Shown one piece after another: positions 8,825-26,453 of a stretch of DNA of 32,000 nucleotides (positions are counted from its first letter, which is position 1; the number at the start of each line of letters is the position of its first letter). Source of the stretch: Aciduliprofundum boonei T469 (GTDB lineage: Archaea > Thermoplasmatota > Thermoplasmata > Thermoplasmatales > Aciduliprofundaceae). A program made the position numbers and the translations under genes. Location: contig NC_013926.1 of NCBI RefSeq assembly GCF_000025665.1, positions 1,140,001-1,172,000 of the forward strand. Direction: 5' to 3'. The notes below the pieces were generated by a model. The model did not search any database and was not told the origin of the DNA. It saw only the letters and a list, made by a program, of their open reading frames with translations.

Positions 8825-8898
8825 GCCGCCGTAGCTTAGTTGGCTGGAGCGGCCGGCTGTTAACCGGCAGGTCGCAGGTTCGAATCCTGCCGGCGGCG
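8825..8898 (+). tRNA. tRNA-Asn (anticodon GUU); integration target
   Basis: Hand-folded. Acceptor GCCGCCG/CGGCGGC. D stem GCTT/GAGC. Anticodon stem GCCGG/CCGGC with loop CT-GTT-AA. T arm GCAGG-TTCGAAT-CCTGC. Discriminator G. 74 nt. Confidence 0.92.
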
Positions 8899-8900
8899 CT
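8887..8900 (+). repeat. attL core (CTGCCGGCGGCGCT) overlapping the last 12 nt of tRNA-Asn
   Basis: Exact 14-mer, identical to 22183-22196. Confidence 0.75.
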
Positions 8901-8970
8901 GCTTTGAATTTATCTGCACCCATCAATAATTTTTTAGAGCTAGTGTTTTACGGGTTCTGTTTGAATTTGG

Positions 8971-9044
8971 ACGCCGTTTGGCGTGCTATAAAGTTTTCGG
9001 TTACCCCCTCAAAAATGCAGAGATCATGCGCCGCCGATTGGCGT
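8971..9044 (+). promoter_or_regulatory. Paired GC-rich palindromes (CGCCG-WTT-GGCGT) flanking a TATA-like box; candidate operator/promoter of the element's left-end operon
   Basis: CGCCGTTTGGCGT at 8972-8984 and CGCCGATTGGCGT at 9032-9044, exactly 60 bp apart. CTATAAAG lies at 8986-8993. The GGAGGTGG SD of the first element ORF follows at 9059. Confidence 0.4.
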
Positions 9045-9070
9045 CTGTATCGAAAAAGGAGGTGGTATGA

Positions 9071-9310
9071 ATGAAGAGGCCATATAAGTTGGAGATTTTG
9101 TGGAGCACGGGAGATTTAACGGAGAGTGGAATAACGGAAATAGAGAAAGAGCTTATAGGGGAGTATGGCTCTCTTTACATACTAACGAGGTACGAACTTA
9201 AAGGAGAGCCAAATGCTAGGCCAGTGAGCTATCAAGTGTGGGATAAGGAAGATAATCCGTTGATACCAATAGATACACAGCCCAGAGCGGAGGAATCAGC
9301 ATCTGCATGA
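9071..9310 (+). CDS. Hypothetical protein (79 aa), first gene of the element
   Basis: ORF with GGAGGTGG a few nt upstream of the ATG. No recognisable motif. Confidence 0.5.
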   Translation: MKRPYKLEILWSTGDLTESGITEIEKELIGEYGSLYILTRYELKGEPNARPVSYQVWDKEDNPLIPIDTQPRAEESASA

Positions 9311-9362
9311 TGTACTACATAGGGATGTTGGAAAAGGATGAAGTAGCACTGGAAGATGAACT

Positions 9363-10703
9363 ATGAGTACAGTGACAAATTCCTTGATTGAAGTGTTTCG
9401 TAATGGTGTTGCACTTACACCAAAAGAAGCTTTTTACATACTTCAAAGTAAAGGGATTAAAACAACATACAAGTCAGTGAGCAAGATTCTCTCTAGGCTT
9501 TATTACAGGGGAACATTAGAGCGTGCTGGAGGCAAATATATTTTTTCCTCACAAGGGCGACAGGTTGTTTCAAGCAAGGCGACATATGGAGACAATTTAA
9601 AGGTAGAGGGCGACAGTCAGAAAATGCAATATATTTCTGATTTTCCAAGCAGATATGTTTCAAATACAGTAAAATTGAAACGAAACGGCATAAGAAGTAA
9701 GCTAATGAAGAGATTTCTGGCCATATTGATGAACAACAACATAGAATTTTTTGATTCTAACAAGTTTTATCAATCTTTGCAGTCCAAGTATTGTTTCCAT
9801 CTCAATAGAAGCACTTATAGAGTGATATTACATAGGTTGAAACTCCGTGGTTTTCTAAGTTTCAGATTCAAAAGGTACTATGTGAATATGAATAAGGTGA
9901 GAGATTTCTTTAGCGTTTCAGATTTTGAGATTGGAGGTGCGAGTACCCATAGCATACCAAAAAATGGTGAAAATTACAAATTCCCCAAATACAAGGGTAC
10001 CCAACCATCCGTTTCAGAAATATTATCCGTTCGTGTCAGCGAGCATGCCCCAAGAGTGGATATAAAGATAAGCAAGTTCAGAAAAGAGATCGTAGAAGAG
10101 AAGTACAATCTTAAGGTGATAAATCCTAGAGATCCTTCTGGAAAGATGCGCTTCAAAGGAAAGCATATCAATGCCATAATAACGAAGAATGGGTATGTCA
10201 TGATAATTCCAAAAGATTCACAATGGCTAGAAGAGGTAAGGGAAGTTTTTGGAGAAGAGGCAGCTGCCAGTGCAAAGCTAAAGGGAGCTATGAAGCATAA
10301 GGAGTATGCGCTAGGAGATTTAGTCAAGCTTTACAAGTCAGAGAGGTTTGGAGCCCAGATAGATTATTCAGAGTTTAATGGGGACATAGGATTTCAAGGA
10401 GATGCGGAAAAAGTTGAGGTTGCGGATGAGATTTTTAGGCAGGAGATAATGAGCAAGGTATCTCAGAGCGCTTATCTGGCCGATATAATAGTTGATTTAG
10501 ATAGGACCTCAGAAGAGTTAAAAGAATTACTCAAAAATACGAGGGAAGAGGTCATGGCCCAAGTATTATTGAATTCTCAAGCGGTAAGTGCCATACGGGA
10601 ATCTGCGAGGGAGATAAGCAATGTTATGCGTCAATTTATAGATATATTAAAAAATGCCCAGAACGGAATGTTTTCTGGAGGAGAGGTTGAGGGTTATGCA
10701 TGA
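9363..10703 (+). CDS. Hypothetical 446-aa protein with two N-terminal wHTH-like segments and a helical/coiled C-terminus
   Basis: LTPKEAFYILQSKGIKTTYKSVSKILSRLYYRGTLER and NRSTYRVILHRLKLRGFLSF look like winged-helix recognition units. The C-terminal ~100 aa are heptad-like and rich in charged residues. No enzyme motif recognised. Confidence 0.6.
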   Translation: MSTVTNSLIEVFRNGVALTPKEAFYILQSKGIKTTYKSVSKILSRLYYRGTLERAGGKYIFSSQGRQVVSSKATYGDNLKVEGDSQKMQYISDFPSRYVSNTVKLKRNGIRSKLMKRFLAILMNNNIEFFDSNKFYQSLQSKYCFHLNRSTYRVILHRLKLRGFLSFRFKRYYVNMNKVRDFFSVSDFEIGGASTHSIPKNGENYKFPKYKGTQPSVSEILSVRVSEHAPRVDIKISKFRKEIVEEKYNLKVINPRDPSGKMRFKGKHINAIITKNGYVMIIPKDSQWLEEVREVFGEEAAASAKLKGAMKHKEYALGDLVKLYKSERFGAQIDYSEFNGDIGFQGDAEKVEVADEIFRQEIMSKVSQSAYLADIIVDLDRTSEELKELLKNTREEVMAQVLLNSQAVSAIRESAREISNVMRQFIDILKNAQNGMFSGGEVEGYA

Positions 10704-10935
10704 GCTAAAGAGATTTCAGATAAAGAGAATTATAGAGGAGGCTATGAGGATCACGAATGATATAACTCTGAGAGAGGATGTAAAGCTTGAGGACATTTAC
10801 AAGATAGCAGAGGCGGTTAAGGGAGAGAGATTAACAAAGAGGGAGAAGCTGATGATAGCAGGCATTGTGAAAAGGCACTATTCAACATATAGGGAGTTAG
10901 AGGATAATGAGTTGAAGGTTGTGGTGATGGTGTAG
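10696..10935 (+). CDS. Hypothetical protein (79 aa), translationally coupled to the upstream gene
   Basis: ATG 10696 overlaps the upstream stop (ATGCATGA) and is preceded by GGAGGAGAGGTTGAGGG. The track start at 10654 is inside the previous gene. Confidence 0.5.
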   Translation: MHELKRFQIKRIIEEAMRITNDITLREDVKLEDIYKIAEAVKGERLTKREKLMIAGIVKRHYSTYRELEDNELKVVVMV

Positions 10936-11080
10936 GAGCCAAATATAATCTATGCAACAGCATATAGTCTTTCTGCTTCTGCAAGAACTTCATTAGCAAT
11001 TGCATTTATCTTTCTATAATCTATTTTCATATTTGATTTTTCTAAAAGCACTTCTTTTACTATTACTCTTATTCTCTCTC

Positions 11081-12313
11081 TTACGTTCTCCTTTTTATTC
11101 CAATCTGCAATAGATCTTCTGGAGTAAGAATTTCAACATTTCTCATACCCTTAATTTTTCTGCGAGTAAAGAATATCTTTCTGCAGTAAAAATTCTCGGT
11201 TTTCTTCTCAAAGCTTTCTATGTCCTTTTTTGTTGCTTTTCCCCACTTAACCTCTCCAACTATTATGGGCTTGTTCCTTTTAGTTATCAGCATATCTATT
11301 TCCCTGTTTGCTTCCTTGAGGTATTCAACTCTACCTCCGTAGAGCTCTGCAAAAAGATCTGCAACGAATCTCTCTATAGCTAGGTTGTGAAGCTTCTCCA
11401 GTGTTGGTTTTACTTCATCGTAAGTGATTTCACGGGATAAGTCGTATCTAGAATCTAAGTAGTAAAACATCTTGGCTGGTTCTGAATCTATCTCGTAAAC
11501 ATACCTCTTCTTTCCGTACCTTTTTATCTCCCTCAAGATTCCCATATCTCTGAGGTTCTTTATGTAGGGAAGTACTGAAGAGCTCGCCGGGGATTTGATT
11601 ATTTTTCGTGAATATAATATGGAAGCAATTTCACGATAATCTAAATAACCTTCTCCTATCAGAGAAATTATAGAGTAATATGTCTTCGTTAACTCTCTCT
11701 CCTCCTCAGTGAATATTTCTCCTATGAGTGCTGGAATTGCGTACGGCAGAATGTTAAGTAGCGAGGGAAAGAATTTTTCAGGTGAGGTAAAAAGAGGAAT
11801 TGTCCAGGGATCACGGAGATAGGGGGCAACTTCAATAGCCTTCTCTGGAGAGAGATAAGAAAGAAGAGAATTAAGAATATCTTTTGCTCTTATTAATCCA
11901 AGGCGATAGGGATATATTATTCCCAAAAATGGTGAGTTCTTGGATAGAAGCTTTGATACAACGCTCATGCTTGAGCCGGAGAGTATAAGCCTGCCAGAAG
12001 GATGCACACTTGCAATATCGTCCCATACTTCCTCGGGCAATCTCTGAAACTCGTCAATTACCACAGTTTTTCCATCCACAAGGCCCCTCTTAACCTTTTC
12101 AATCATGCCCCCCGTATCTATTTTTTCATTCCCATTTTCCATTCTAATCCTGCCATCTCTCCGAATGAAAAAATAAATGTCATAATTTAGAAAATTCTTT
12201 ATGAGAAATGTTTTTCCAACTTTCCTCCTGCCAAAGAGCAGAATCCAGCCACCCATGCTTTTTATCTCCTCCGCCTCACTTCTGTTAACCACTATTCTTG
12301 AACCCATATTCAT
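11081..12313 (-). CDS. P-loop ATPase of the archaeal ATPase/DUF234 type with a C-terminal PD-(D/E)xK-like motif
   Basis: 410 aa. Walker A LLFGRRKVGKTF, Walker B VVIDEFQ, a central wHTH-like region (SSSVLPYIKNLRDMGILREI), and C-terminal REIDMLITKRNKPIIVGEVKWGK (D...E-V-K). Confidence 0.8.
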   Translation of the reverse strand: MNMGSRIVVNRSEAEEIKSMGGWILLFGRRKVGKTFLIKNFLNYDIYFFIRRDGRIRMENGNEKIDTGGMIEKVKRGLVDGKTVVIDEFQRLPEEVWDDIASVHPSGRLILSGSSMSVVSKLLSKNSPFLGIIYPYRLGLIRAKDILNSLLSYLSPEKAIEVAPYLRDPWTIPLFTSPEKFFPSLLNILPYAIPALIGEIFTEEERELTKTYYSIISLIGEGYLDYREIASILYSRKIIKSPASSSVLPYIKNLRDMGILREIKRYGKKRYVYEIDSEPAKMFYYLDSRYDLSREITYDEVKPTLEKLHNLAIERFVADLFAELYGGRVEYLKEANREIDMLITKRNKPIIVGEVKWGKATKKDIESFEKKTENFYCRKIFFTRRKIKGMRNVEILTPEDLLQIGIKRRT

Positions 12314-12618
12314 GAATCATGGTTCACAAATATTTAAGGGTTGTGATTTTGTGTTAGGCAATTTTGCTACGAAGTTTGAGAATAAATAGAAAGCTTTAAA
12401 GTAAAACCTTCGTTAATTTGTAAATATTTCCGCAATAGCAAGATAAATGAATAAATGGATAAATGATTTCGTTTTGGCCTAAAACGACACTATTAGAGCC
12501 CATAAATGCCTTTTCAAAGCTATGGGGTATATAAATAAACGGGCAGTTTTAGTATCGTTTAAAATAAACGAAACTAAAGATAAATCTCTCCAGGAAACTG
12601 AGTTTGACCGTAGAGCTT

Positions 12619-13380
12619 TCACCATAGCAGGTTCTTTTCCCTCTCCATCTTCCTTTTCCACTTCGCAACTTCTTCCTTCGTCACCAGCCAAGCACCCAAA
12701 TACAGATTGTAGATAGAACCATCCTCGTAAATCACATTGTTTCCATCCACCTTGTAGTGCAGTCCCGGTACCTTTGGAAAATCTATCTTCTCCTCCTTAT
12801 CTTCTTTAGCTGGAGATTCTTCAACCTGTGAGCTCTGTGTCTGGACAGCATCTGCAATCATGTCCAGCCTGTTCTTTATCTCCTCCAACTCTGGATAAAG
12901 CTCCGTTGCCACTGCCATCCCAACTCTGTCCTCTATGTTGAGAATCTCATTCGTTTTCCTGTAGTACTTCTCTCGGACATAGAGCTTCAGAGCTTCTCTC
13001 ACGATAGAGGATAAATTCTTGCCTCTCATTCTTGCTATGGACTCTATATCTTCCTTCAACTCACTGCTTACCTTTACCCGTATCTCTGGCATACTTCCCG
13101 CCATTTTTATCACCGCTTTTTCTCTCTTTAGAACCTCTATATAAAATTGTCTATGGGAGCGGAGTTCAATTTTTGCTGTATAGAACACATTCTCTTTGCA
13201 ATTTGCATTTTTGAAGTGGAAAATTTGCCAAATTTTTAGTGGAATTCTGGAAAACCCTTCTACAACATTATTTCCTTTCAATTTCTCCACTGTTTGGTGG
13301 AATTTCTCCTCCCTGAAATACACTTTTGGGATGTTGAAAATTCTTCGTTCTTTTCTGCTTCTCCTTACAAGGCACTTCAT
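12619..13380 (-). CDS. Ribbon-helix-helix domain protein (start uncertain: 13380 or 13104)
   Basis: The RHH segment MPEIRVKVSSELKEDIESIARMRGKNLSSIVREALKLYV lies mid-ORF. ATG 13104 has GGTGATAAAA upstream. ATG 13380 sits 24 nt downstream of a TTATTTATA box, which fits a leaderless start. No stop codon lies between the two. Confidence 0.6.
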   Translation of the reverse strand: MKCLVRRSRKERRIFNIPKVYFREEKFHQTVEKLKGNNVVEGFSRIPLKIWQIFHFKNANCKENVFYTAKIELRSHRQFYIEVLKREKAVIKMAGSMPEIRVKVSSELKEDIESIARMRGKNLSSIVREALKLYVREKYYRKTNEILNIEDRVGMAVATELYPELEEIKNRLDMIADAVQTQSSQVEESPAKEDKEEKIDFPKVPGLHYKVDGNNVIYEDGSIYNLYLGAWLVTKEEVAKWKRKMEREKNLLW

Positions 13381-13978
13381 TTTGGTGGAGCTCGCTTATC
13401 TTGCTATAAATAATAAATATTTTATAAGGGAACTCCACAGAATTGCGTTGAATTGCTAGCAGGATTAGATTTACACGGTGTCTTCTGGATGTACATTGTT
13501 TGTATATCCCTACGAGTATATTTCGGGAAATGATGTGCTAAGTCAATAGTATATAAAGCCTCTTTTTCAGAATTGCAAGGAAAGTATGTATTATAATACT
13601 TCAACTTACAATTTATTAATTGATTGATTAATTAATTAACTCCAAAAATAAAATAATAAGGGGAGAGATGGTATCTCACCTATAATATCTCCGTTTATTA
13701 AAAAAGAAATTATTAATTCTGGCGGGGGAGGTTTAAAATTTGGGATTGCTAGAGAAATTAGTTCTATGTTTGTTCTCTGCGATGTGGCATTTTCTTCTAA
13801 ACTTAGTGGAGCTAAATGTAATGAAGTTAGTAAAATGAAATCTTTAAAGAGATGTGGAAAGAAGGTATGTTGAGATGTAATATTACAAACGTAATTAAAG
13901 TTAAAATAAATTTTATAATAGCTTATTTCGTAAAGTATTTATAATATAAGTTGCATATCTTTTGCCGTTGCATAGAAG

Positions 13979-16900
13979 GTGGTGGAAACGAAGAGTAGTG
14001 GATTTGTGAAGGTATTGGTGATTTCCTTGGTTCTTTTAATGATTTTCAGTGGGCTTGGAGTTGTTATGAATGCCACGGGAGTTAGTACTCATAAAACATC
14101 TTTAACTTCTAATGAAGCAAATGTTGTGAAGGCGCATATACTTGATACATCCTTCTCTGATTTCAAATTCAAGAAAATTAGCCAAGGAGATATAAATAAA
14201 ATGTTAGAGCTGAGAGAAAAGATAATTGGGAGATTAAATGAAAGTGATGGTGGAAAATCATACCATAACTTACCTGAATATAATATGGAAAATTCTGCAG
14301 TTCGTATGGAACATCTATCGTATATGAATACCCGCATAGATTTTAATAATAATGCCACGCCCATGATAGATGGACATGCTACAGGATTGATCTTACCCGA
14401 TAGAAAAGAGCTTGAGAATTTGATTGGACACAAGATGATAATCGGTTTGAATACAAAGGTAAGAGAGCCAAGCAGTGTAAGGTGGGACTTAGATCCGCAT
14501 TTTCCACCGGTGGGAGATCAAGAATGGCAAGGATCTTGTACAGCTTGGGCTGTAAGCTACTATCAAAACGGGTTTTTGCAGAGAATGATTTACAACTGGA
14601 CAGATGACTCTCTCGGTCACCTTATGAGCCCTTCTTGGACTTACAACAAGGCAAATTTTGGAGAGGATGGAGGGAGTACTTTTGAAGGTAATATTGAGGT
14701 GATTGAGAGTGTTGGAGATGCCACTCTGGCCAACATGACTTATAATCCTTCAGATTATGTCTCTTGGGGAGATGAGAATGCTTGGAGAGATGCACCCAAG
14801 CATAGAATTGGGAATTATTACCTTGTTTATTTTGGAAACGATAGTGGAATTGCAACTATAAAAGAGCTATTGCAAGAAGGTTATTTGGTTACATTCGGTA
14901 TAGATGCCTCTCAATTTGGTAATGGCTTTGCAGATGGAAACTACATAATTTCTTCGCAGGAATACAATTCTAACTCTCCTAATCATGCTCAAACAATCGT
15001 GGGATATGATGATAACATAACAGATGATGGAGATGTTGGAGCGTTTAGAGTTGTAAATTCATGGGGTACAGACTGGGGAGATCATGGATTTTACTGGATT
15101 ACATACAAAGCCTTGGAGGAAAAAATATCTCAGGGTTGGCCCTATGCTCGTGTTCTAGTTCCACTCTCTCAACATCCATATAATCCAAAGCTACTTGCCA
15201 TTTGGCATTTTAGCAATCCTGGACCGAGAGATGCACCTGTAAACATAACAATAGGCTCTGAAAACTCAAGTTTATATAGAACTCCAATCTGGAATGGAGG
15301 AAATCACTATTTTCCAAGTTTTATGGCTCTTGATATTACTGAGTTCTACAATGAATGGGTAAATTCGAGCTATAAGGATAAGTTCTACCTAAAGATCGGA
15401 TCGAGCAGCAGCGGCTCTAGCACAGTGGACTCTTTCAAGATAGACTACTATCCATACGGATATAAATACTTGTGGCAAAACTCCACAGAATCTCGAGATG
15501 TTCCTGCCATCACTCCTTTAATAATAAAATCCGCTGAATTCATGCCTAGTGAATACTTTCCTTACATATATATAAATCCTATACATACTATTTTTCATAA
15601 ATACTATCATTTAAATGTGACTGATGTTATTTTAGGTAATGCAGGTAATTCCACAGATGCTTTACTTTTTTATGCTGAAGCGACAAATGGATGGTCTGTT
15701 CATCCCTCTTATAAAAAAATAGTCTTACGTTCTAATGAAATTCAGAATATTGAGCTGAATATAACACCGCCAAACAATGTTAAGTTAGGTGACAAGACAA
15801 CAATAAAAATAAAAGTTATTTCACAAAATGATACATCCAAATCATATATGTTAAATATAAAAGAGATCTACCTTTCAAATATAATATACATCGATGGAGA
15901 TTCAGATTTTAAATATCAAGCAAAAATTTTTGGCTGGCCTGGAAATGGTTCTGAAGATAACCCATACATTATATCTGGTCATAAAATAGATGCTAGTAAT
16001 ATAAGCTTTGGTATTTATATCCGCAATACTAGAGTTCATTTTATTGTAACTGACTGTGAAATATATCATAGCAGTGCTTATTACTCTTGGCCCACCCCAT
16101 ACGGTGAAGGAGTTTGGCTTTATAATGTATGGTATGCCAAAATATACAACAACATCTTTCATAATAACGGAAATCATACACTTCTAAGAGGTGGCGATGG
16201 TATATTCTTACAATACTCCCTCTATTCCCTAGTTTTCAACAATATAGTTTATAATAATTGGAATGGAATTACATTGTATTACTCTTATGAAAATATAATA
16301 AAAAGTAACATTATTAAAAATAATGGAGAATCAGGCATATCTATTTTATCTTCAGGTAAAAATAGCTTATATCATAATAATATGACTAACAACGGAATCT
16401 TTTTATATGGGGGATTTAATACATATATAACACAGAAAATTCCTATCAATAATACAATAAATGGCAAATCCGTATTTTACTATATAAATAGTAATCACAA
16501 TTTTACAGCTCCACCAAATATTGGTGAAATTATTTTAGGAAATGTTAGTAATTTAAAAATAGAAAATACAACCTTACTAGGCCTAAACTATGGTATTCAA
16601 ATAGCCTACTCATCTAATGTTACAATAATAAATTCAACCGTAGAAGGTATCAGTATTCAGGGTTCAAATAATATAACAGTCGACAACACACATTGTGAAG
16701 GTGGTATAGACGGTGTAGTAACTATGGGATCTTCAAAAATTTTGATAAAAAACAGCACTTTTAAAAATAAGCAGATTGGAGTGTACTTTTTTGATACTGA
16801 AAAAAGTATTGCAGTAAACAATACATTTTATGATTGTGAGAGTGGAATTGAAATAGTTTTCTCTAGTAATAATTTAGTTAAAAATAATCATATTGTTGGA

Positions 16901-17707
16901 AATTATAATGAAGATGGAATTTATGTATATTATTCACAAAAAAATTCAATAGAAAATAATACCATTTATTATGAAAAATATGGCGTATTTTTAAATAGAT
17001 ATTCAAAATACAATATATTGATATATAATACTATTTCTAAAAGCTCTAAATATGGGGTGTATATGGCCTCTTTCTCGGAGTATAATATAATTTACAATAA
17101 CTCATTCTATTACAATCACGGCTCAGGAGATACTTACAATTCGTCGCATATTCAAGCGCGAGATGATGGCTCTGATAATTGGTGGAATTCCACATCAGGT
17201 ATAGGCAATTACTGGCAAGATTGGGCAAACAACAATAATAGCAATGATAAAAATGGAGATGGTATTGTGGACTGGCCCTACAATATAGACGGCTCTGCAG
17301 GTGCGAAGGATTATTATCCACTAAGATGCTCGGTAGAGGAATCTACACCATCTCACCCTTTTAATTTAAATGCTAAAACAGGTAATGGTTATGTAAATTT
17401 AAGCTGGAATCAACCACTATGTAATGGGAGTTCTAATATTACATTATACAAAATATATCGCAATGGTACTCTAATAGCAACAGTACCTGCTACTCAACTT
17501 TGGTACAACGACACTAATGTAGTTCCTGGAGTTAATTACTCATACTATGTCACTGCAGTAAATTCAGTTGGAGAGTCACAGCCCAGCAACACCGTAAAAG
17601 CTACACCAACAGGGGCCATACCAGAGTTCTCAAGTGCGTGGATAGCAATAATAACAATACTATCCTTGCTTGTAGTATTTCGTAGGAGGAAAGTCAAGAA
17701 AACCTGA
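13979..17707 (+). CDS. Secreted, surface-anchored multidomain protein: papain-like (C1) cysteine protease + beta-sandwich domains + right-handed beta-helix repeats + Fn3-like domain + PEF-CTERM-like anchor
   Basis: 1242 aa with a GTG start after GAAGGTGG. Signal/anchor VKVLVISLVLLMIFSGLGVV. Protease motifs DQEWQGSCTAWAVSYY, SPNHAQTIVGYDD and VVNSWGTDWGDHGFYW. About 450 aa of N/G/I-rich ~22-aa repeats ending DKNGDGIVDWPYNI..DYYPL. Fn3-like YVNLSWNQP..YSYYVTAVNSVGES. C-terminus PEFSSAWIAIITILSLLVVFRRRKVKKT. Confidence 0.85.
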   Translation: MVETKSSGFVKVLVISLVLLMIFSGLGVVMNATGVSTHKTSLTSNEANVVKAHILDTSFSDFKFKKISQGDINKMLELREKIIGRLNESDGGKSYHNLPEYNMENSAVRMEHLSYMNTRIDFNNNATPMIDGHATGLILPDRKELENLIGHKMIIGLNTKVREPSSVRWDLDPHFPPVGDQEWQGSCTAWAVSYYQNGFLQRMIYNWTDDSLGHLMSPSWTYNKANFGEDGGSTFEGNIEVIESVGDATLANMTYNPSDYVSWGDENAWRDAPKHRIGNYYLVYFGNDSGIATIKELLQEGYLVTFGIDASQFGNGFADGNYIISSQEYNSNSPNHAQTIVGYDDNITDDGDVGAFRVVNSWGTDWGDHGFYWITYKALEEKISQGWPYARVLVPLSQHPYNPKLLAIWHFSNPGPRDAPVNITIGSENSSLYRTPIWNGGNHYFPSFMALDITEFYNEWVNSSYKDKFYLKIGSSSSGSSTVDSFKIDYYPYGYKYLWQNSTESRDVPAITPLIIKSAEFMPSEYFPYIYINPIHTIFHKYYHLNVTDVILGNAGNSTDALLFYAEATNGWSVHPSYKKIVLRSNEIQNIELNITPPNNVKLGDKTTIKIKVISQNDTSKSYMLNIKEIYLSNIIYIDGDSDFKYQAKIFGWPGNGSEDNPYIISGHKIDASNISFGIYIRNTRVHFIVTDCEIYHSSAYYSWPTPYGEGVWLYNVWYAKIYNNIFHNNGNHTLLRGGDGIFLQYSLYSLVFNNIVYNNWNGITLYYSYENIIKSNIIKNNGESGISILSSGKNSLYHNNMTNNGIFLYGGFNTYITQKIPINNTINGKSVFYYINSNHNFTAPPNIGEIILGNVSNLKIENTTLLGLNYGIQIAYSSNVTIINSTVEGISIQGSNNITVDNTHCEGGIDGVVTMGSSKILIKNSTFKNKQIGVYFFDTEKSIAVNNTFYDCESGIEIVFSSNNLVKNNHIVGNYNEDGIYVYYSQKNSIENNTIYYEKYGVFLNRYSKYNILIYNTISKSSKYGVYMASFSEYNIIYNNSFYYNHGSGDTYNSSHIQARDDGSDNWWNSTSGIGNYWQDWANNNNSNDKNGDGIVDWPYNIDGSAGAKDYYPLRCSVEESTPSHPFNLNAKTGNGYVNLSWNQPLCNGSSNITLYKIYRNGTLIATVPATQLWYNDTNVVPGVNYSYYVTAVNSVGESQPSNTVKATPTGAIPEFSSAWIAIITILSLLVVFRRRKVKKT

Positions 17708-17863
17708 GGTTCAAAACCACAGATTGCAAGGAAATTAAGCTTTACAATATAATCTTGCATATTCTCTCACATAGACAATTTAAAATGACGCCAGAAACAA
17801 ATCTTTATGATTAGCTTTGAATCTATTGAGGGAAAAATATATTCCATGAGGAAATAACAAATA

Positions 17864-17878
17864 GAAAAGTTTAAAATA
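17864..17878 (+). promoter_or_regulatory. BRE/TATA promoter (GAAAAG-TTTAAAATA), 21 nt before ATG 17900
   Basis: A/T-rich TATA box preceded by a purine-rich BRE-like hexamer. The spacing is typical of leaderless archaeal mRNAs. Confidence 0.45.
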
Positions 17879-17899
17879 GAGTGGGGAGATGTATAAATA

Positions 17900-18106
17900 A
17901 TGAGCAAGGAGATCAAGGACAAGAACTATGAGTTCTACATAAATGCGGATTTGAGTGAATATGCTGGGAAGTGGATTGCGATAGTGGATGGCAAGGTTGT
18001 GGCCAGTGGGGAAGATCCTGAGGAAGTATATATGAAAGCAGAGAAAAAAGGTGGTAAGGACATATCCCTAGCGTATGTGCCAACTGATGATCTCTTGATT
18101 TTGTAA
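17900..18106 (+). CDS. Small DUF5678-like protein (68 aa)
   Basis: GKWIAIVDGKVVASGEDPEEVYMKAEKKG is the signature I recall for the small archaeal DUF5678 family. The function is unknown. Confidence 0.55.
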   Translation: MSKEIKDKNYEFYINADLSEYAGKWIAIVDGKVVASGEDPEEVYMKAEKKGGKDISLAYVPTDDLLIL

Positions 18107-18130
18107 ATTATTCTTCCTGCTATATCGTAA

Positions 18131-18145
18131 GAAAACTTTAAAATA
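18131..18145 (+). promoter_or_regulatory. BRE/TATA promoter (GAAAAC-TTTAAAATA), 20 nt before ATG 18166
   Basis: Near-identical to the 17864-17902 cassette, including AGATGTnTAAATA just before the ATG. Confidence 0.45.
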
Positions 18146-18165
18146 TAAGCAAGAGATGTGTAAAT

Positions 18166-18321
18166 ATGGAAGATGTGGGCACGATAGAGAGATTGTACAA
18201 GAAGCTGGACGAGGAAGAGCCAACTGAGGAGGAGCTAAAAATAATAAAAGAGGGTAGAGAAGAGATAAATAAAGGGCAATATGTAAAGCTTGAAGATGCT
18301 TTGGAAATTTTAGATGAGTGA
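18166..18321 (+). CDS. Small acidic antitoxin-like protein (51 aa; below the track's 60-aa cutoff)
   Basis: ATG 18166 to TGA 18319-18321 gives MEDVGTIERLYKKLDEEEPTEEELKIIKEGREEINKGQYVKLEDALEILDE. Its C-terminal pattern is like the aRelB-like protein at 19935 (..G..V.LE....L). It has its own TATA box. Confidence 0.45.
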   Translation: MEDVGTIERLYKKLDEEEPTEEELKIIKEGREEINKGQYVKLEDALEILDE

Positions 18322-18455
18322 AAATAGCTAGTAATCGCTCATAGAAGGAAAATACATTAACTCATCAATGGTAGAAAGTTATAAAGAAAAATTTCCCACC
18401 GGAGTAAGACAAAAATGTTAAATATGTCTTAGTTGTATAGAACAAATTGGTTGAA

Positions 18456-19739
18456 ATGCTCTTGGAAGAGGTCATAGCTGAGTTTCATCGCTTTGGAATT
18501 CCGAAATTGAAGGAGAGGAGCTTAGATTTACCTTTGAATTTGAACAAAGCAATCACTCTTGTTGGACTACGAAGAACGGGAAAGACATATCTATTGTACC
18601 AAACGATACAAAAATTGATAGAAAGGGGAATGAGAATAGAGCGGCTCTTTTACATAAACTTTGAAGATGAGAGAATAGGAAATATGGACTCCAAAGATTT
18701 ATCTCAAATTGTGGAAATATATAGAAAATACAATCCTGATGCAAAGAGCATGTATCTTTTCTTGGATGAAATACAGAATGTAAAAGGTTGGGAGAAATTC
18801 GTGCGCAGGCTTTTGGAGAGAAGAAATGCAAGGCTCTTCATCACAGGCTCATCTTCCAAACTTCTAAGCAAGGAAATTGCAACGACTCTTAGAGGGAGAA
18901 GCTTGAGTTATCATCTTTTTCCTTTATCGTTCAAAGAGTTCTTAAAGTTCAAGGAGTTTAAGCTCAGAGAACCTTTGATAGAAGATGATAGGGGAATGAT
19001 AAAGAAGTATCTAGATGAGTACACCAACTTTGGAGGATTTCCAGAGATTGTAAATTACGAAGAGATACTGAAGATAAGAACTCTCCAAGAATATCTAGAT
19101 TTGATAGTTTACAAGGACTTGGTAGAGAGATACGGAATAAAGAAAATTGGTGTGATGAAGGCATTGATAAAAGCCACAGTGAAGAATTTTGGAAACAGAA
19201 TATCTGTTAAGAAACTCTACAATAGCCTTGGGTCTGGAAATGAGCTTAGCAAGAACAAGATCTATGAGTATTTCTCGTACCTTGATGACATTGGGTTTGT
19301 TATTCCAGTGAGAAAATTTAGCTACAGCGAGATTGAATCTATGAGGAGCATGCCCAAATTATATGTGGTGGACAATGGATTTCCCACACTCTATGGAATG
19401 AAAGATATGGGAAGGAGGATAGAGAATATAGTTGCAGTGGAGCTGATGCGTAGAAAATACTACTACAATCCCACACAAGAATTTGCCTACTATATGGCGG
19501 GAAACAAAGAGGTGGACTTCGTTGTCTACGAGGGGCAAAGAGTTAAAGAATTAATACAAGTTTGTTACGATGTTAGCGATATAAACACCAAAAACAGAGA
19601 GATAGACGCCTTGATAAGAGCTTCCAAAGAGCTGAAATGCAATGATTTAAAAATAATCACATGGGACCATGAGGGCCAAGAGGAAGTAGAGGGAAAGAAA
19701 ATAGAGTATGTTCCACTGTGGAAGTGGCTTCTTGAGTAA
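18456..19739 (+). CDS. AAA ATPase of the AAA_14/DUF4143 (COG1373-like) type
   Basis: Walker A VGLRRTGKTYLL and Walker B YLFLDEIQ. C-terminal EVDFVVYEGQRVKELIQVCYD segment. The start is ATG 18456 or TTG 18447. Confidence 0.8.
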   Translation: MLLEEVIAEFHRFGIPKLKERSLDLPLNLNKAITLVGLRRTGKTYLLYQTIQKLIERGMRIERLFYINFEDERIGNMDSKDLSQIVEIYRKYNPDAKSMYLFLDEIQNVKGWEKFVRRLLERRNARLFITGSSSKLLSKEIATTLRGRSLSYHLFPLSFKEFLKFKEFKLREPLIEDDRGMIKKYLDEYTNFGGFPEIVNYEEILKIRTLQEYLDLIVYKDLVERYGIKKIGVMKALIKATVKNFGNRISVKKLYNSLGSGNELSKNKIYEYFSYLDDIGFVIPVRKFSYSEIESMRSMPKLYVVDNGFPTLYGMKDMGRRIENIVAVELMRRKYYYNPTQEFAYYMAGNKEVDFVVYEGQRVKELIQVCYDVSDINTKNREIDALIRASKELKCNDLKIITWDHEGQEEVEGKKIEYVPLWKWLLE

Positions 19740-19897
19740 CATGATAAGTTAGGTCTAAGAGCTTTCAAAAACATCCATATTTTGTCCTCTTTGAAGGAAA
19801 ATTTGCCCGATATTGAAGTTTCTCCTTGAGGGTGGTATAATTACACCTGTAAAGGTGAAAAACGCTCTCAAATCAAAAAATTTGTAAAAATCCCTTA

Positions 19898-19912
19898 GAA
19901 AAGATTAAAATA
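19898..19912 (+). promoter_or_regulatory. BRE/TATA promoter (GAAAAG-ATTAAAATA), 22 nt before ATG 19935
   Basis: Same architecture and spacing as the promoters at 17864 and 18131. This supports ATG 19935 rather than GTG 19920 as the start. Confidence 0.45.
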
Positions 19913-19934
19913 CAATAAGGTGATAGTAAAGGTG

Positions 19935-20150
19935 ATGGCAACGAATGGCACTGTAGAGATTTTAGAACGACTTGAGGGGGAGATACAAGACATAAAGAAG
20001 ATGCTAGAGAGATTGGAGACTATGCTAATTGGTGAGGAAGAAATATCGGAAGAGGAGAGAAAAGAGCTTGAAGAGAGGATAAAAGAGGCAAAGAATGGAG
20101 ACACAGTGAGCTTGGAAGAGTTTCTCCGTGATTTAAATGTACAGAGTTGA
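19935..20150 (+). CDS. relB: aRelB-like antitoxin (71 aa)
   Basis: Helical acidic protein (LERLEGEIQDIKKMLERLETMLIGEEEISEEERKELEERIKEAKNGDTVSLEEFLRDL). It overlaps by 14 nt the ATG of a RelE-like reading frame. Confidence 0.6.
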   Translation: MATNGTVEILERLEGEIQDIKKMLERLETMLIGEEEISEEERKELEERIKEAKNGDTVSLEEFLRDLNVQS

Positions 20151-20419
20151 GATACATCGCAAAGCCCAGAAAGAGATAAAGTACTTGCCGGAAGATATAA
20201 GAGAAGGTTTTGAATTTAATTATCAATCTGCAATACGCTCCGTATCCTTTTAAAGAGTATGACCTTAAGAAGATTAAAGGATTGAAAGATGTTTATAGGG
20301 TGAGAATAGGAGATTATAGGGTAATCTATCTTGTTAATGATGATCTCAAGAAAGTTACAATTTTAGAGGTAAAAAGGAGAGAAAAAGCATATAGAGATTT
20401 AAAAAATAGAATGCCCTGA
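20137..20419 (+). pseudogene. relE: aRelE/ParE-type toxin gene disrupted by a frameshift in a T-run
   Basis: Frame 1 from ATG 20137 reads MYRVEIHRKAQKEIKYLPEDIREGF... and stops at 20251-20253. Frame 2 from ~20201 reads ..LNLIINLQYAPYPFKEYDLKKIKGLKDVYRVRIGDYRVIYLVNDDLKKVTILEVKRREKAY. The two halves together make one typical RelE. The switch point is GGTTTTG (20206-20212). Confidence 0.7.
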
Positions 20420-20421
20420 GA

Positions 20422-20709
20422 TTATCTTCTCAGCTTCTCAAACAGCCAAGGCTTGTCCTGGGCAAGAGTAATTATTATGCCTTCTAGGTCCTCATCCTCC
20501 GGGTATGTGAGTAATATATTTTCCACCATTTCCTTCATTAGCTTTGCTGGGAGATCTATTGTATGCGGGCCAATCTGAATAAGGTATCTTTCAGATGCTC
20601 TTCTAATCTTCACAAAATTTGTGGTATCCATGCCCTTTATTTCCACCAATCTGGTTATCTCCTCTCCGCCGGATAGCAGAAAGGAGAATCTTACCACATC
20701 ATCACTCAT
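20422..20709 (-). CDS. Hypothetical protein (95 aa), coupled to the upstream wHTH gene
   Basis: Its ATG overlaps the upstream stop (ATGAGTGA, 8 nt). No recognisable motif. Confidence 0.5.
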   Translation of the reverse strand: MSDDVVRFSFLLSGGEEITRLVEIKGMDTTNFVKIRRASERYLIQIGPHTIDLPAKLMKEMVENILLTYPEDEDLEGIIITLAQDKPWLFEKLRR

Positions 20710-21010
20710 CGTTCCTCACCTCTCTTACAAGTATTTTAACATCCTTCTTCAAAATCACATAATCCTTACCTTCAATCCTTATAATTTCTATTATTCCACT
20801 GTACATCAGCTTGTAAAGATGGGGCCTTATAGAGTTTCTCTCCACTGGCAAATCTTGATCTTTTAGAACCTTCAAAAGCTCGGGAATTCGCATTTTTTGT
20901 TTTTTCTTTAAAGCTTGCAGAACCGCAGCCCGTATGTAGTGAGAGAGTCCGTCAGCTAGCACTTCTATGGTGTAAACATCTTTAACTTCTTCATAATTAT
21001 TCATCATCAT
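20702..21010 (-). CDS. Winged-helix (ArsR-like) transcription regulator, divergent from the integrase
   Basis: IRAAVLQALKKKQKMRIPELLKVLKDQDLPVERNSIRPHLYKLMYSGIIEI is a wHTH pattern. The ATG triplet run at 21010/21007/21004 lies 17-23 nt from a TATATATAT box (21028-21036). The track start at 21076 would leave only 24 bp before the integrase ATG. Confidence 0.65.
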   Translation of the reverse strand: MMMNNYEEVKDVYTIEVLADGLSHYIRAAVLQALKKKQKMRIPELLKVLKDQDLPVERNSIRPHLYKLMYSGIIEIIRIEGKDYVILKKDVKILVREVRNDE

Positions 21011-21100
21011 GTAGGTAAGACGAAAGGTATATATATGTTTTTTGCATGATGTCAAAATGTCATTAAATTTAGACATTTAGAAAATGATGAGGGAAGTGAG

Positions 21101-22168
21101 ATGAACATAAGAAAGATAAAAGAGGTGGTAGACGAGGTAAGTAAGGCGTTAGAAAATGGAAACTATGAAGATGCAAGAGATTTGATAGAGAATCTCAGGG
21201 CCATGCTAAAAAGCACAACAGAGTCTAAGGGGTGGCAGAAAAACAAGGATGAATACTTTGCATACTTGAAAACTACGCGGGAAATAAAAACTGTGAAGGA
21301 TCACAGAATCAAGCTTGAAAAAGCAGAAGAGTTTTTGAAGGAAAAGTACGGATATCTTCCAAATCCAGCCTCTATAACGGAGAAAGATGCTAGAGAGTAC
21401 CTTTATTGGTTAAAGCTCAAGGGATACGATAGGAACTATTATCGCAGAGTTTTCCAAGTTTTTATCCAGTTTTTGGCATTCTCTATGAACCCCAGAGCTT
21501 TTAAAATGAGATTTTTAGTGCCAAGAGAGGATAAGAAGCCCATTCTCTACATGGCTGTGGAGGATGTTAAAAAGGCACTTGAGATGTTTGGAGAGCAGAA
21601 TTTTGAAGAGCTAAAGCATAGGACTATGATATGGATCTACGCGTGGACGGGTATAAGATATTCGGAGGTGATAGTCTTAAAGAAGGATGACATAGATTTG
21701 AAAAACAATCTTATCATTGTGAGAGAAGGAAAAGGTGGGCATGAGAGAGTAGTATACATACCTCCAGTGTTGAAGGGTCTTCTTGAAAAATACATTGAAA
21801 GATGGGAAAAGTACATGAAACTGAGAGAGGAGATGGGGTTGAGAACTTCAGAATACCTGTTCTTCTGGATCAAAAGAAACGGGGAGATAATGGATCCTTA
21901 CTGGGGATTTAGAGGATACTTCACACATTTTGCAGATAGGGCAAAGGAAGTAGGCATAGAGAAATTCAATATAAAGAAGTTCAGGGCTACTATAGCTAAG
22001 TTGCTTAGGGAGATAGGAGGTGTAGATCTATCAACAGTTAGTGCTCAGCTTGGACATAGTAGAACTTCCACAACCGAAGAATTCTACCATAGAATGGGAC
22101 CTGTTGGATTGGAAAAACCTTATGAAAAAGTTGAAAAACTTCTTTTGGGTGATAAAAAGGATGATTAG
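21101..22168 (+). CDS. int: Tyrosine recombinase / integrase (intact)
   Basis: 355 aa. Catalytic-type residues appear in order: AWTGIRYSE (R), GKGGHER (K), KKFRATIAK (R), LGHSRTSTTEEFY (H..Y). The stop is 14 nt before attR. Confidence 0.9.
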   Translation: MNIRKIKEVVDEVSKALENGNYEDARDLIENLRAMLKSTTESKGWQKNKDEYFAYLKTTREIKTVKDHRIKLEKAEEFLKEKYGYLPNPASITEKDAREYLYWLKLKGYDRNYYRRVFQVFIQFLAFSMNPRAFKMRFLVPREDKKPILYMAVEDVKKALEMFGEQNFEELKHRTMIWIYAWTGIRYSEVIVLKKDDIDLKNNLIIVREGKGGHERVVYIPPVLKGLLEKYIERWEKYMKLREEMGLRTSEYLFFWIKRNGEIMDPYWGFRGYFTHFADRAKEVGIEKFNIKKFRATIAKLLREIGGVDLSTVSAQLGHSRTSTTEEFYHRMGPVGLEKPYEKVEKLLLGDKKDD

Positions 22169-22182
22169 GTTATTATTCTATA

Positions 22183-22196
22183 CTGCCGGCGGCGCT
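22183..22196 (+). repeat. attR core (CTGCCGGCGGCGCT), a displaced copy of the tRNA-Asn 3' end
   Basis: Exact 14-mer, identical to 8887-8900. It is followed by ATTTTTGT, an oligo-T tract expected of the original tRNA terminator. Confidence 0.75.
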
Positions 22197-22292
22197 ATTT
22201 TTGTATCGCTGGTCGGATGGATTCGCACCCTTCCGACTTTCTTCCAAATTCCTAAGCAAACCTTAAATATTCTGTGTGGATTTTAATTCTTA

Positions 22293-23345
22293 ATGAGAAA
22301 GAGTATTGCAGTTGCAATTAGTGTGGTAATCATAGTGTCAGCAATTGCGGGTGTAGTTCTTCTAGGCACCTACCAGAATAATGATACTCTTAAGATTAAA
22401 ATCCATTTACCTGTGAACTCCTATTTTTATACCACTGGAATCTTTACATTTAAGAATGAGACAATGCTATATCTTGGAGCTAATGTAAGACCGAATGTGG
22501 ATGAAGAAAATAACAGCTATGGTATATTTTATATAACGGCTATCCAAAATAGATATTCCATAGAGGGTAAAGACTGGAAAGAGATATTAAGAGTTAGTGA
22601 AAAAATAGATAGGATAAAAGAATACAGTTATGGAGACTCCGCATATTTTTCTATTATACTATCAAATTTAACCTCCTTGATTGTGAAAATAAACGAGAAT
22701 TTGCAAGTTGATAAAATATGGTATACACACAAATTGGAAATTTATTCTATGCTTATTTCAAACGGATATTTTTATCTATTTGAGAAGAACGAAAATTCCG
22801 CAGAATTAGTGAGAACTAAGGATTTTAACAACTTTACAGAGATTTACAGAATTAAAAATGTTGCATTCATTTTCAACAGTTATTTATTCGCTTTAAATAA
22901 TGAAGTATACCTTGCATATGGAGTCGCTATTTCAAATCTTAGTAATGGAGAAGGTGCTCTTCTGAAAACAAGAGGAACGGGATACAAAGTTATACTAAAT
23001 AATACGCACGCATGGGAAATTTTTGCGTTTTCGCAGGATAATAAAATATTTTATTATGAAACACTAGAGAAAAATATAAATCTATTTGTGATAAATCCAT
23101 TTACCGATAGAATTGAGGGAAAATACAACATTTACTGGGTGCCATTTTACCATAATAATGGCATAACAATTGCAGTAGGGAAGGATATTCTCTATTCAGA
23201 AAACGGCATAAAATTTAAGCCAGTATGCTCCCGTGATGGTATGAGTTTTGATATAAATTCTCCTGACCAAATTGCAATAATAAACCATGAACTTTATGTT
23301 CTACTATTTAATGGTCAAAGTGTAATGGTGAAATGCAGAATATAA
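22293..23345 (+). CDS. Hypothetical N-terminally membrane-anchored protein (350 aa)
   Basis: N-terminal anchor IAVAISVVIIVSAIAGVVLL, then a beta-rich N/Y/I-rich sequence with no recognisable motif. TTAAATAT box 22 nt before the ATG. Confidence 0.6.
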   Translation: MRKSIAVAISVVIIVSAIAGVVLLGTYQNNDTLKIKIHLPVNSYFYTTGIFTFKNETMLYLGANVRPNVDEENNSYGIFYITAIQNRYSIEGKDWKEILRVSEKIDRIKEYSYGDSAYFSIILSNLTSLIVKINENLQVDKIWYTHKLEIYSMLISNGYFYLFEKNENSAELVRTKDFNNFTEIYRIKNVAFIFNSYLFALNNEVYLAYGVAISNLSNGEGALLKTRGTGYKVILNNTHAWEIFAFSQDNKIFYYETLEKNINLFVINPFTDRIEGKYNIYWVPFYHNNGITIAVGKDILYSENGIKFKPVCSRDGMSFDINSPDQIAIINHELYVLLFNGQSVMVKCRI

Positions 23346-23398: not shown

Positions 23399-23518
23399 AG
23401 CCCCGTGGTGTAGTGGTCAAGCATCGGGGACTCTGGCGAAGCCCCTTTAAAAAGGTGCTTTATCCCCAAAGGGCTTCGGAGAGATCCCTGGACGGAGGTT
23501 CGAATCCTCCCGGGGCTG
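23399..23518 (+). tRNA. tRNA-Gln (anticodon CUG) with a 47-nt canonical (37/38) intron
   Basis: Acceptor AGCCCCG/CGGGGCT (A1-U72). Anticodon stem GGGGA/TCCCT, anticodon 23433-23435. T arm GGAGG-TTCGAAT-CCTCC. Intron 23437-23483 is flanked by a textbook helix-bulge-helix-bulge-helix: CUCU/GGAG central helix, bulges GG|c and ag|A, inner helix GAAGCCC/GGGCTTC. An oligo-T tract follows. Confidence 0.88.
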
Positions 23519-26365: not shown

Positions 26366-26453
26366 TCCCATCACCTCAAAAATGAAAAAATATTCTTCTA
26401 TATAAAATTTTTCAATAGTAAAGTTAAATAAGAACATTTGCATCAAGGCTCAA

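Follow-up and report, generated by a model that had tools for sequence, protein, structure and literature searches.

What is the block of genes that lies between a tRNA-Asn gene and a second copy of its 3' end in the chromosome of Aciduliprofundum boonei T469, and is it still mobile? We addressed this question in a window of 32,000 nucleotides (nt), that is, the whole stretch of DNA analysed (positions 1,140,001 to 1,172,000 of contig NC_013926.1; all coordinates below are those of the window unless a contig is named). Comparison with public assemblies indicates that the region is very probably an integrative element specific to the Aciduliprofundum lineage and active at present. Aciduliprofundum (DHVE2 group) is a thermoacidophile that is widespread at deep-sea vents. 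The element comprises the 13.3 kb between the repeats and is a new family of a known kind, its mode of integration being familiar. No description of it was found in the searchable literature, in which a casposon is the only mobile element described for Aciduliprofundum or the DHVE2 lineage; automated island databases may still list it.

The target gene, the two copies of the core and the integrase are as follows.

8825-8898, plus strand: tRNA-Asn(GTT), the integration target (ARAGORN, 8825-8899; Rfam RF00005, 8825-8898, 70 bits).
8887-8900, plus strand: attL core, CTGCCGGCGGCGCT; the same core is present singly in attP (draft contig L002) and in attB (genome L015), both introduced below.
21101-22168, plus strand: tyrosine integrase of 355 amino acids (aa), intact after integration (PF00589, 3.2e-17; phrog_1, 7e-32).
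22183-22196, plus strand: attR core, CTGCCGGCGGCGCT; behind it stands the original trailer of the tRNA gene, ATTTTTGTATCGC, which matches the sequence found after tRNA-Asn in the empty site of L015.

The acceptor stem of the tRNA pairs GCCGCCG with CGGCGGC, which places the discriminator base at position 8898; the 14-mer therefore consists of the last 12 nt of the tRNA gene plus 2 nt. The window has these two copies of it and no others, also with one mismatch permitted, and none of 100 dinucleotide-preserving shuffles of the window contained a match. Two of the three nucleotides immediately 5' of the core also agree between the copies (ATC versus ATA), and the second copy is followed by ATTTTTG. 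Among the relatives' loci examined, the 14-mer is found only at tRNA-Asn or at the ends of the element. An earlier reading made from the sequence alone (the sequence-only reading) had proposed these repeat coordinates, the 12 + 2 nt composition of the 14-mer, and an intact tyrosine recombinase ending 14 nt before a second core with an oligo-T tract behind it, and on all these points we arrived at the same result.

Alignment to the XerA protein of P. abyssi (4a8e) places the catalytic residues of the integrase at R186, K211, R295, H319 and Y329, with Lys292 in place of the first His of the HxxR box (box II). The protein reaches 105 bits against the XerA equivalog profile, of which the cutoff is 220, and it is missing from the tRNA-Asn locus of L015; it is therefore not the host XerA. 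Its family is tiny, with matches at 99%, 62% and 62% identity and the next at 27%, and among deposited plasmids and phages the only matches, again at about 27%, are to bacterial Xer/IntI proteins. In SSV-type (type I) elements attP lies inside the integrase gene, which is cut in two when the element integrates. Here the core lies 14 nt past the stop codon, outside an open reading frame (ORF) of the full 355 aa, and integration leaves the gene whole; an SSV-type element was therefore rejected.

An empty attB, both integrated junctions and a joined attP junction all exist in public assemblies, from which the four att configurations were taken. The empty site is found in the metagenome-assembled genome (MAG) Aciduliprofundum sp. 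S013_35 (L015), where tRNA-Asn is followed directly by AGTTTTGTATCGCTGGTCGGATGG; the sequence behind the gene, AGTTTTGTATCGCTGGTCGGATGGATTTGCACCCTTCCGACTT, matches window positions 22180-22239 with 95% identity over 60 nt. The locus is without any element gene and the break falls precisely at the core, while MoaA (90% identical), a 350-aa protein, GDH, TIP49, EamA and Lhr are syntenic with the window. The attP junction is found in the A. boonei draft assembly GCA_000151085.1, which matches the window at 99.9%. Its contig DS990543.1 (L002, 11,454 bp) consists of window positions 11755-22196 continued by 8884-9925, such that the end of the integrase gene is followed by TTATTCTATA, a single core, GCTTTGAATTT and the left end of the element, the junction being exact to the base. 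Two sister contigs of the same assembly, DS990527.1 and DS990518.1, hold attL and attR. As read from the contig, the junction corresponds to the attP expected from an excised circle, or from a tandem dimer. The sequence-only reading had suggested looking in relatives for tRNA-Asn joined directly to the right flank, and for a circular excised form; L015 provides the former and DS990543.1 the junction of the latter.

Read data from other sources point in the same direction. The Logan contigs of runs SRR9419353 and SRR9419354 stop exactly at 22196, and the Logan left-flank contig ends at 8916, i.e., 8886+30; in the mock-community run SRR606249, contigs cross attL and attR unbroken. If the Logan assembly uses k=31, which we take to be the case, these contig ends hint at breaks of the graph where attR and attP coexist and attB is undetectable. 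In the Logan graphs, an attP fork is seen and an attB fork is absent, a weak hint that attP may outnumber attB.

In the mechanism that we propose, the integrase would recombine the attP core of the circular form with the 3' end of tRNA-Asn, within the 14-bp core. The element would thereby supply a replacement tRNA 3' end, so that tRNA-Asn stays intact, and the displaced original end with its oligo-T terminator would come to lie at attR. Two genes divergent from the integrase gene, coding for a winged helix-turn-helix (wHTH) protein and a 95-aa protein, probably control its expression.

Two further observations concern the same site in other genomes. The S013_35 genome codes for a 701-aa molybdopterin oxidoreductase (formate-dehydrogenase-like; L015 10877-12982, minus strand) between attB and the 350-aa gene, and both element-bearing genomes are without it (window counterpart 22240-22393), either by coincidence or through an element-linked deletion. 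In contig L017 (2030-2068) of a third relative (MoaA 86% identical), the sequence behind the core, which begins with ACTTTTTCCATGGGAAAG, matches neither the empty site nor the element; 39 nt of it are present before the contig breaks off, and they may belong to another insertion in tRNA-Asn.

A second host carries the element in a different form. In MAG S145_39 (left part in L016, right part in L103/L101; MoaA 88% identical to that of the window), the same backbone lies at the same tRNA-Asn with an identical core at both ends, and the tRNA-Asn gene bears an intron, which that of the window does not. This copy adds an 868-aa HsdM-like methyltransferase, of which no remnant was found in the window; a 1527-aa beta-helix protein replaces the protease of the T469 copy, and there is an extra fn3/beta-propeller protein of 1852 aa. 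The same backbone thus occurs with differing cargo in two hosts, and it follows that the backbone is stable and the cargo exchangeable.

Synonymous divergence (dS) between the two hosts is 0.10-0.31 for the main backbone genes, namely the 446-aa gene introduced below, the integrase, both ATPases, the first of two 79-aa genes, RelB and the 95-aa gene, and their ratio of nonsynonymous to synonymous divergence (dN/dS) is 0.02-0.16. The wHTH gene has a dS of 0.02, and higher values are found for the second 79-aa gene (0.89), the ribbon-helix-helix (RHH) gene (0.43) and the DUF5678 gene (0.54). The host flanking genes span 0.67-1.42. Representative values are listed below.

446-aa gene (element): dS 0.10; dN/dS 0.10.
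Integrase (element): dS 0.25; dN/dS 0.023.
Two ATPases (element): dS 0.20; dN/dS 0.07-0.09.
MoaA (host flank): dS 1.42; dN/dS 0.046.
TIP49 (host flank): dS 0.86; dN/dS 0.026.
GDH (host flank): dS 0.67; dN/dS 0.022.

Because the dS of the element lies far below that of the host genes, its two copies must have diverged long after their hosts did, and horizontal transfer follows from this. By their dN/dS ratios, the element genes are under purifying selection. What moves in this way between Aciduliprofundum species includes defence-candidate and giant surface-protein genes.

The end of the element opposite the integrase is occupied by a non-coding region and a compact module of three genes, which we refer to as the 79/446/79-aa module.

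8901-9070, plus strand: non-coding left end (P' arm and regulatory region, 170 nt), from reading of the sequence.
9071-9310, plus strand: 79-aa protein, gene 1 of the module (94% identical in S145_39, 67% in contig L012).
9363-10703, plus strand: 446-aa hallmark protein (AlphaFold models (AF2), Foldseek, alignment).
10696-10935, plus strand: 79-aa protein, gene 3 of the module (start at 10696 as set by the gene callers; 97% identical in S145_39).

The left end contains a T6 tract (8930-8935) and a TATA-like box, CTATAAAG (8986-8993), which is bracketed by two palindromic boxes, CGCCGWTTGGCG, at 8972-8983 and 9032-9043. Within the window these boxes occur only at the left end (0.01 expected), and they are kept in the S145_39 copy. 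A 56-aa ORF with a TTG start (8904-9074) is probably not a gene, since no gene caller reports it. The first 79-aa protein has no family match in Pfam, PHROGs or NCBIfam; small ORFs of similar size lie directly 5' of the distant relatives of the 446-aa gene, the likeness being one of size and position. The longest ORF for the third gene (10654-10935) would code for 93 aa, and two paralogues in L012 are 57-60% identical to its product.

According to the structural models, the 446-aa protein is predicted to consist of two winged-helix domains (residues 1-64 and 107-184), an alpha/beta domain resembling TATA-binding protein (TBP; residues ~223-308) and a helix or coiled coil of ~90 residues. The alpha/beta domain has a predicted local distance difference test score (pLDDT) of ~88-91 in the AlphaFold sub-model, and its best Foldseek matches are the N-domain of RNase HIII and many TATA-binding proteins, all weak (E 0.01-0.6). 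Distant homologues, at ~21% identity, keep this architecture together with a C-terminal EVEGYA tail, encoded in the window at 10683-10700 as (G)EVEGYA. The penultimate Tyr of the tail is the only Tyr kept in all aligned full-length homologues (the partial P0007 has Phe), and the tail resembles a peptide on which a partner protein would dock. No match to the 446-aa protein was found in Pfam, PHROGs, NCBIfam or PADLOC, nor in PLSDB, INPHARED (tblastn) or IMG/VR. The whole family amounts to five clusters among 5.8 billion proteins, with seven matches among 1.84 billion representatives, and when the element or its hallmark gene was looked for in IMG/VR, JGI metagenomes, PLSDB and INPHARED, a single 1.1-kb contig was all that came back. 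We consider the protein a candidate origin- or operator-binding or maintenance protein, and the two CGCCGWTTGGCG boxes on either side of the module's promoter are probably bound by a protein of the module.

A replication initiator of the Rep-Arvir/Rep_trans or HUH rolling-circle type was considered for the 446-aa protein and rejected: the Tyr of its KHKEY motif and the nearby His are unconserved in the distant homologues, and there is no DUF7845 match. Some likeness exists nevertheless to betapleolipovirus SNJ2 and the Rep-Arvir initiators (PMC13107129). As in these, the integrated form has the integrase at one end and the candidate core module at the other, and circularisation would make them neighbours of the same orientation across attP, and the predicted combination of a TBP-like fold with winged helices recalls the fold class of the Rep-Arvir/Rep_trans catalytic domains (PMC13107129). 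In Rep-Arvir (DUF7845), an N-terminal TBP-like catalytic domain with an invariant catalytic Tyr is followed by a wHTH domain. In the 446-aa protein the order is reversed, the wHTH domains preceding a single TBP-like repeat; no match to PF25227 was found at E<=0.01, and no Tyr inside the TBP-like domain is conserved across the family. An SNJ2-like operon restored across attP was likewise rejected. Its gene order fits, but the T6 tract and a separate TATA-like box intervene between attP and the module, so that a restored read-through operon is unsupported.

Where the context of the relatives of the 446-aa protein can be judged, it resembles that of mobile elements and not that of chromosomal housekeeping genes. 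In L009/L010, an island within a 437-kb contig, the module is followed by at least 12 genes of the same orientation, several with products that read as secreted or anchored in the membrane, and by a P-loop ATPase. In L012 (5195-8908) there are two divergent paralogous 79/446/79-aa modules, of which the large proteins are 21-24% identical; they flank an intergenic region (7040-7215) that holds five or six GGGGGC/GCCCCC motifs, among them GGGGGCAATTGCCCCC, which is perfectly palindromic. To judge from this arrangement, the pair may mark two incompatible or co-operating systems together with their predicted binding sites. The same contig holds intact relBE and hicAB. In L014 the integrase gene lies directly 5' of the module and co-oriented with it, which is the gene order of the circularised window element, in the company of a resolvase and large unknown genes.

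Two contigs from independent assemblies, L108 (1-18020; ENA k141_40950) and L109 (1-11393; JGI Ga0190313_1000688), are circular permutations of one element of ~19.5 kb, and the length of the JGI contig, 19,606 bp, fits a terminal overlap of 127 nt if its remainder is collinear with L108. Besides a distant homologue of the 446-aa protein, this element contains a serine recombinase (resolvase), a PAPS reductase, DUF5131, several proteins of 580-640 aa without known function, and a P-loop ATPase-HTH protein with weak DnaA-like and Zot-like matches; it is probably a circular episome, an undescribed vent plasmid or virus. Finally, L100, the 1.1-kb JGI contig mentioned above, carries an 18-nt copy of the tRNA-Asn 3' end, AATCCTGCCGGCGGCGCT, at 323-340 (minus strand) with no tRNA gene. 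The segment is inverted and lies ~330 nt 5' of the module, which is 97% identical to that of L014 in DNA over 704 shared nt; tRNA-Asn is probably the target of this second sub-lineage as well. No gene set other than the 79/446/79-aa module is common to these otherwise different architectures, as would be expected of a core function in replication, maintenance or regulation.

Integration of the pNOB8 type (type II) leaves the integrase gene intact. The window element resembles archaeal integrative plasmids and cryptic integrated elements, classes of which have been described in Thaumarchaeota (PMC6563490), in its tyrosine recombinase, a core formed by the tRNA 3' end, an intact integrase, direct repeats, and mixed cargo without virion or conjugation genes. 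Unlike in the integrative plasmids, its integrase is without close relatives, its core is merely 14 bp long, and its 79/446/79-aa backbone matches no described plasmid family. Catalytic residues, direct repeats with an empty site, and a single-core form, which characterise tRNA-targeting tyrosine-recombinase elements, are all present, although a tandem dimer would also account for the last of these. With the pTN3/TKV4-like and pT26-2 plasmids of Thermococcales and Methanococcales the element shares a vent euryarchaeal host, a tRNA target, a tyrosine integrase and many ORFans. The hallmark of the pTN3-like plasmids is an MCM helicase, and that of pT26-2 a conserved core set of genes; no MCM or other helicase family was found in the element with Pfam and PHROGs, and the 446-aa protein had no tblastn match among the plasmids of PLSDB.

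The initiators of iteron plasmids (RepE, pi and RepA) have tandem winged helices. The 446-aa protein is similar to them in its two N-terminal winged helices and in the position of its gene beside short G+C-rich repeated sites, as is its relative in L012 with an array of GGGGGC motifs. It differs in that no sequence or Foldseek match to them exists, that the window has two palindromic boxes in place of an iteron array, and that its winged helices are joined by a TBP-like domain, a coiled coil and a tail that is conserved. As to other classes, the sequence-only reading saw no recognisable replication or virion motifs, and our searches of Pfam, PHROGs and NCBIfam bear it out, with no MCM, primase, Rep, capsid or terminase. 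Within the range of recognisable virion proteins, a provirus is not indicated: PHROGs matches are limited to the integrase and Arc/CopG-like proteins, and Pfam yields no structural family. An integrative conjugative element is not indicated either, the ATPases being of the AAA_14 type only, with no VirB4/TraG or mating-pore module; at 13.3 kb the element has no room for a conjugation module. A casposon was rejected as well, since no ORF of the element matches Cas1 or PolB and the ends are direct and not inverted repeats. With no conjugation or virion genes recognised in the element, vesicle transfer or a helper element are possibilities for its spread.

How, then, is the excised form kept? We tentatively propose that the module serves to initiate replication of the episomal form or to maintain it. 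A more specific version is rather unlikely: that the module is a new, non-enzymatic system of replication initiation or maintenance, in which the EVEGYA tail docks a host factor, that it is common to a network of DHVE2 plasmids and virus-like elements with nothing else in common, and that the tRNA-Asn element is an integrative plasmid replicating in T469. Several points weigh against our reading of the region. Neither a replication protein nor an origin, a partition system or a transfer apparatus was identified in the element, nor any iterons or repeat arrays beyond the two palindromic boxes, and these boxes, flanking a TATA-like element, suit plain autoregulation as well as an origin. With no catalytic Tyr or His conserved in the 446-aa family, an enzymatic initiator is unlikely. 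In the episomal relatives the initiator could be the ATPase-HTH protein, which the window element does not have. A tandem dimer, or a circle that is excised only for a time, could account for the attP junction without a replicating plasmid, the sample identity of runs SRR9419353 and SRR9419354 is not established, and a search for a compositional signature distinguishing the element from its chromosomal flanks gave none (GC content 0.366, against 0.366 and 0.391 in the flanks). The sequence-only reading had counted a host-like composition against mobility when combined with the lack of an empty site in any relative. The composition is indeed that of the flanks; the empty site exists, and its other two warning signs, a 14-mer common elsewhere and relatives with the block but without repeats, were not borne out in the window and the relatives' loci examined.

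Much the same evidence bears on the alternatives. The element may be an excisable island that does not replicate, forms a transient circle, is inherited with the chromosome and spreads passively (by vesicles or DNA uptake) or with assistance, the 446-aa module being a regulator only. We regard this as a serious possibility, if short of probable: no Rep, helicase, primase or partition gene is recognised (Pfam, PHROGs, NCBIfam), the CGCCGWTTGGCG palindromes bracket the TATA-like box of the module itself, the 446-aa family has no conserved catalytic residues, composition is fully host-matched, and the cargo is of the defence-island type (a PDC-S01 match at 2e-109, toxin-antitoxin genes, and the methyltransferase of the sister copy). 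An attP junction abundant enough to yield an assembled contig of 11.4 kb does not sit easily with it, nor, as a weak hint, does a Logan attP fork without an attB fork; and the 446-aa family is present on a free episome of 19.5 kb, probably circular, and in other settings that resemble mobile elements, as one would expect of a core gene more than of a regulator private to one element. That the element is instead a satellite or defective derivative of a virus-like element, relying on a helper for packaging and transfer, seems improbable. The relatives lend this some colour, with the module and at least 12 co-oriented genes of L009/L010 (several secreted or membrane-anchored, and a P-loop ATPase), the ~20-kb elements of L014 and L108/L109 with their large unknown proteins, DUF5131 and PAPS reductase, and an fn3 segment of an L009 membrane protein that is 42% identical to the fn3 domain of the window surface protein. 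Yet no protein of these relatives matches a known virion protein, so that their virus nature is not established; no helper is known in T469, from which only one gene of the 446-aa family was found, and there is no relative in IMG/VR.

Scarcely any weight can be given to a static, decaying remnant, in which the repeat would be a relic or coincidence and the attP contig an assembly artefact or tandem duplication. A short repeat of 14 bp, a frameshift in relE, a composition no different from the chromosome and a single copy in the finished window are what such a remnant would show; but no chance occurrence of the 14-mer is expected, the L015 empty site breaks precisely at the core, and the attP junction is exact to the base, with forks at agreeing positions in two further sets of reads. 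The backbone genes, with dN/dS of 0.02-0.16, are intact without exception, and in dS the element falls 3- to 10-fold below the host genes. We reject a remnant because of this low dN/dS and an element younger than the host split, relE being the only pseudogene. Of the two outcomes between which the sequence-only reading hesitated, an undescribed element family is supported, and decay is contradicted by the dN/dS of 0.02-0.10 of the integrase, the 446-aa gene and the ATPases.

The DHVE2 lineage was uncultivable until 2006, and we know of no genetic tools for it. The element offers all four att junctions and an integrase with a defined 14-bp target, a practical start for an integration vector; if it does replicate as proposed, it could become the first vector backbone for the lineage. 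The candidate core module also links a small number of vent mobile elements into a network that had gone unnoticed, and the element provides a starting point for asking how replicons without a recognisable Rep are maintained.

The remainder of the element is exchangeable cargo (defence-candidate ATPases, a surface protease that bears a PEF-CTERM signal, and relB next to an inactivated toxin gene), accompanied by small genes and the regulators next to the integrase.

11081-12313, minus strand: 410-aa P-loop ATPase with a C-terminal DUF234-like (nuclease-like) region (AAA_14, 5.7e-8; DUF234, 0.007).
12619-13104, minus strand: RHH protein, probably 161 aa from MAGSMPEI (RHH_1, 7e-6; Arc/CopG-like PHROGs).
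13979-17707, plus strand: 1242-aa surface protein, cargo (Pfam; TIGR03024).
17900-18106, plus strand: DUF5678 protein, 68 aa (PF18929, 5.9e-19).
18166-18321, plus strand: 51-aa protein with no family match in Pfam, PHROGs or NCBIfam.
18447-19739, plus strand: 430-aa ATPase with AAA_14 and DUF4143 (Pfam, 3.8e-39 and 4.9e-16; PADLOC PDC-S01).
19920-20150, plus strand: RelB-like antitoxin, intact (67% identical to the L012 RelB, the partner of an intact RelE).
20137-20419, plus strand: relE/parE toxin pseudogene (frameshift at ~20189-20199, in-frame stop).
20422-20709, minus strand: 95-aa protein, co-oriented with the wHTH gene (98% identical in S145_39, dN/dS 0.03).
20702-21076, minus strand: wHTH-like regulator, 102-124 aa, divergent from the integrase gene (weak PADLOC matches).

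This inventory largely agrees with that of the sequence-only reading (AAA_14 with weak DUF234, RHH, Peptidase_C1/beta-helix/fn3, DUF5678, AAA_14 with DUF4143, and a frameshifted RelE). The 430-aa ATPase matches PDC-S01 profile PDLC04787 at 2e-109 over residues 30-430, which suffices for assignment to the PADLOC candidate system PDC-S01 and makes it a candidate anti-virus defence gene; the 410-aa ATPase, 96% identical in S145_39, has a weak match to PDC-S01 (PADLOC, 3e-9). No solved-structure relatives of either ATPase were found. The open frame of the RHH gene reaches 13380, but the N-terminal extension is interrupted in S145_39, and an AT-rich spacer of 598 nt separates it from the surface-protein gene. 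The latter is predicted to code for a signal/transmembrane segment, a papain-like C1 protease with intact QGSC...NHA...NSW motifs, a parallel beta-helix, fn3 and a PEF-CTERM archaeosortase signal (TIGR03024, 33.2 bits against a cutoff of 23).

Directly 5' of the DUF5678 and 51-aa genes lie the two copies of a 37-nt direct repeat, D2 (17863-17899 and 18130-18166, 78% identity), which holds a TATA-like box, AAAGTTTAAAATA, and a GAGATG ribosome-binding-like motif; its position and content suggest a shared promoter cassette. In a tblastn search with the 94-aa RelE of L012, residues 1-21 align in frame 1 and residues 19-93 in frame 2, and a ParE_toxin match (1.7e-7) is confined to the C-terminal piece. 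The pair is accordingly not an intact type II relBE system, and no relE is called at that position in S145_39. The 95-aa protein has no family match in Pfam, PHROGs or NCBIfam, and the wHTH protein shows weak PADLOC matches to Csa3 (1.7e-4) and to the AbiEi wHTH (1.2e-3).

Outside the element, the right flank contains a full-length TIP49/RuvB-like AAA+ protein (25019-26446, minus strand; PF06068, 5e-142), conserved in the relatives; the TIP49 family belongs mainly to eukaryotes, and among archaea not all have it. A DDE_Tnp_1 transposase gene (27413-28243, plus strand) lies between EamA and the Lhr helicase. The surrounding stretch of ~0.9 kb (27363-28298) is absent from L015, and in L101 EamA is directly followed by Lhr; it is therefore a strain-specific insertion sequence. 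A tRNA-like sequence at 23.4 kb was considered as the remnant of an older att site and rejected, as it is a complete, intron-bearing tRNA gene (23399-23518, plus strand; Rfam, 45 bits), the third of the window, missed by ARAGORN on account of the intron and with an anticodon read as CTG (Gln). Its intron is ~76% similar to that of the S145_39 tRNA-Asn gene (roughly L016 1609-1657), which suggests that related introns move between different tRNA genes.

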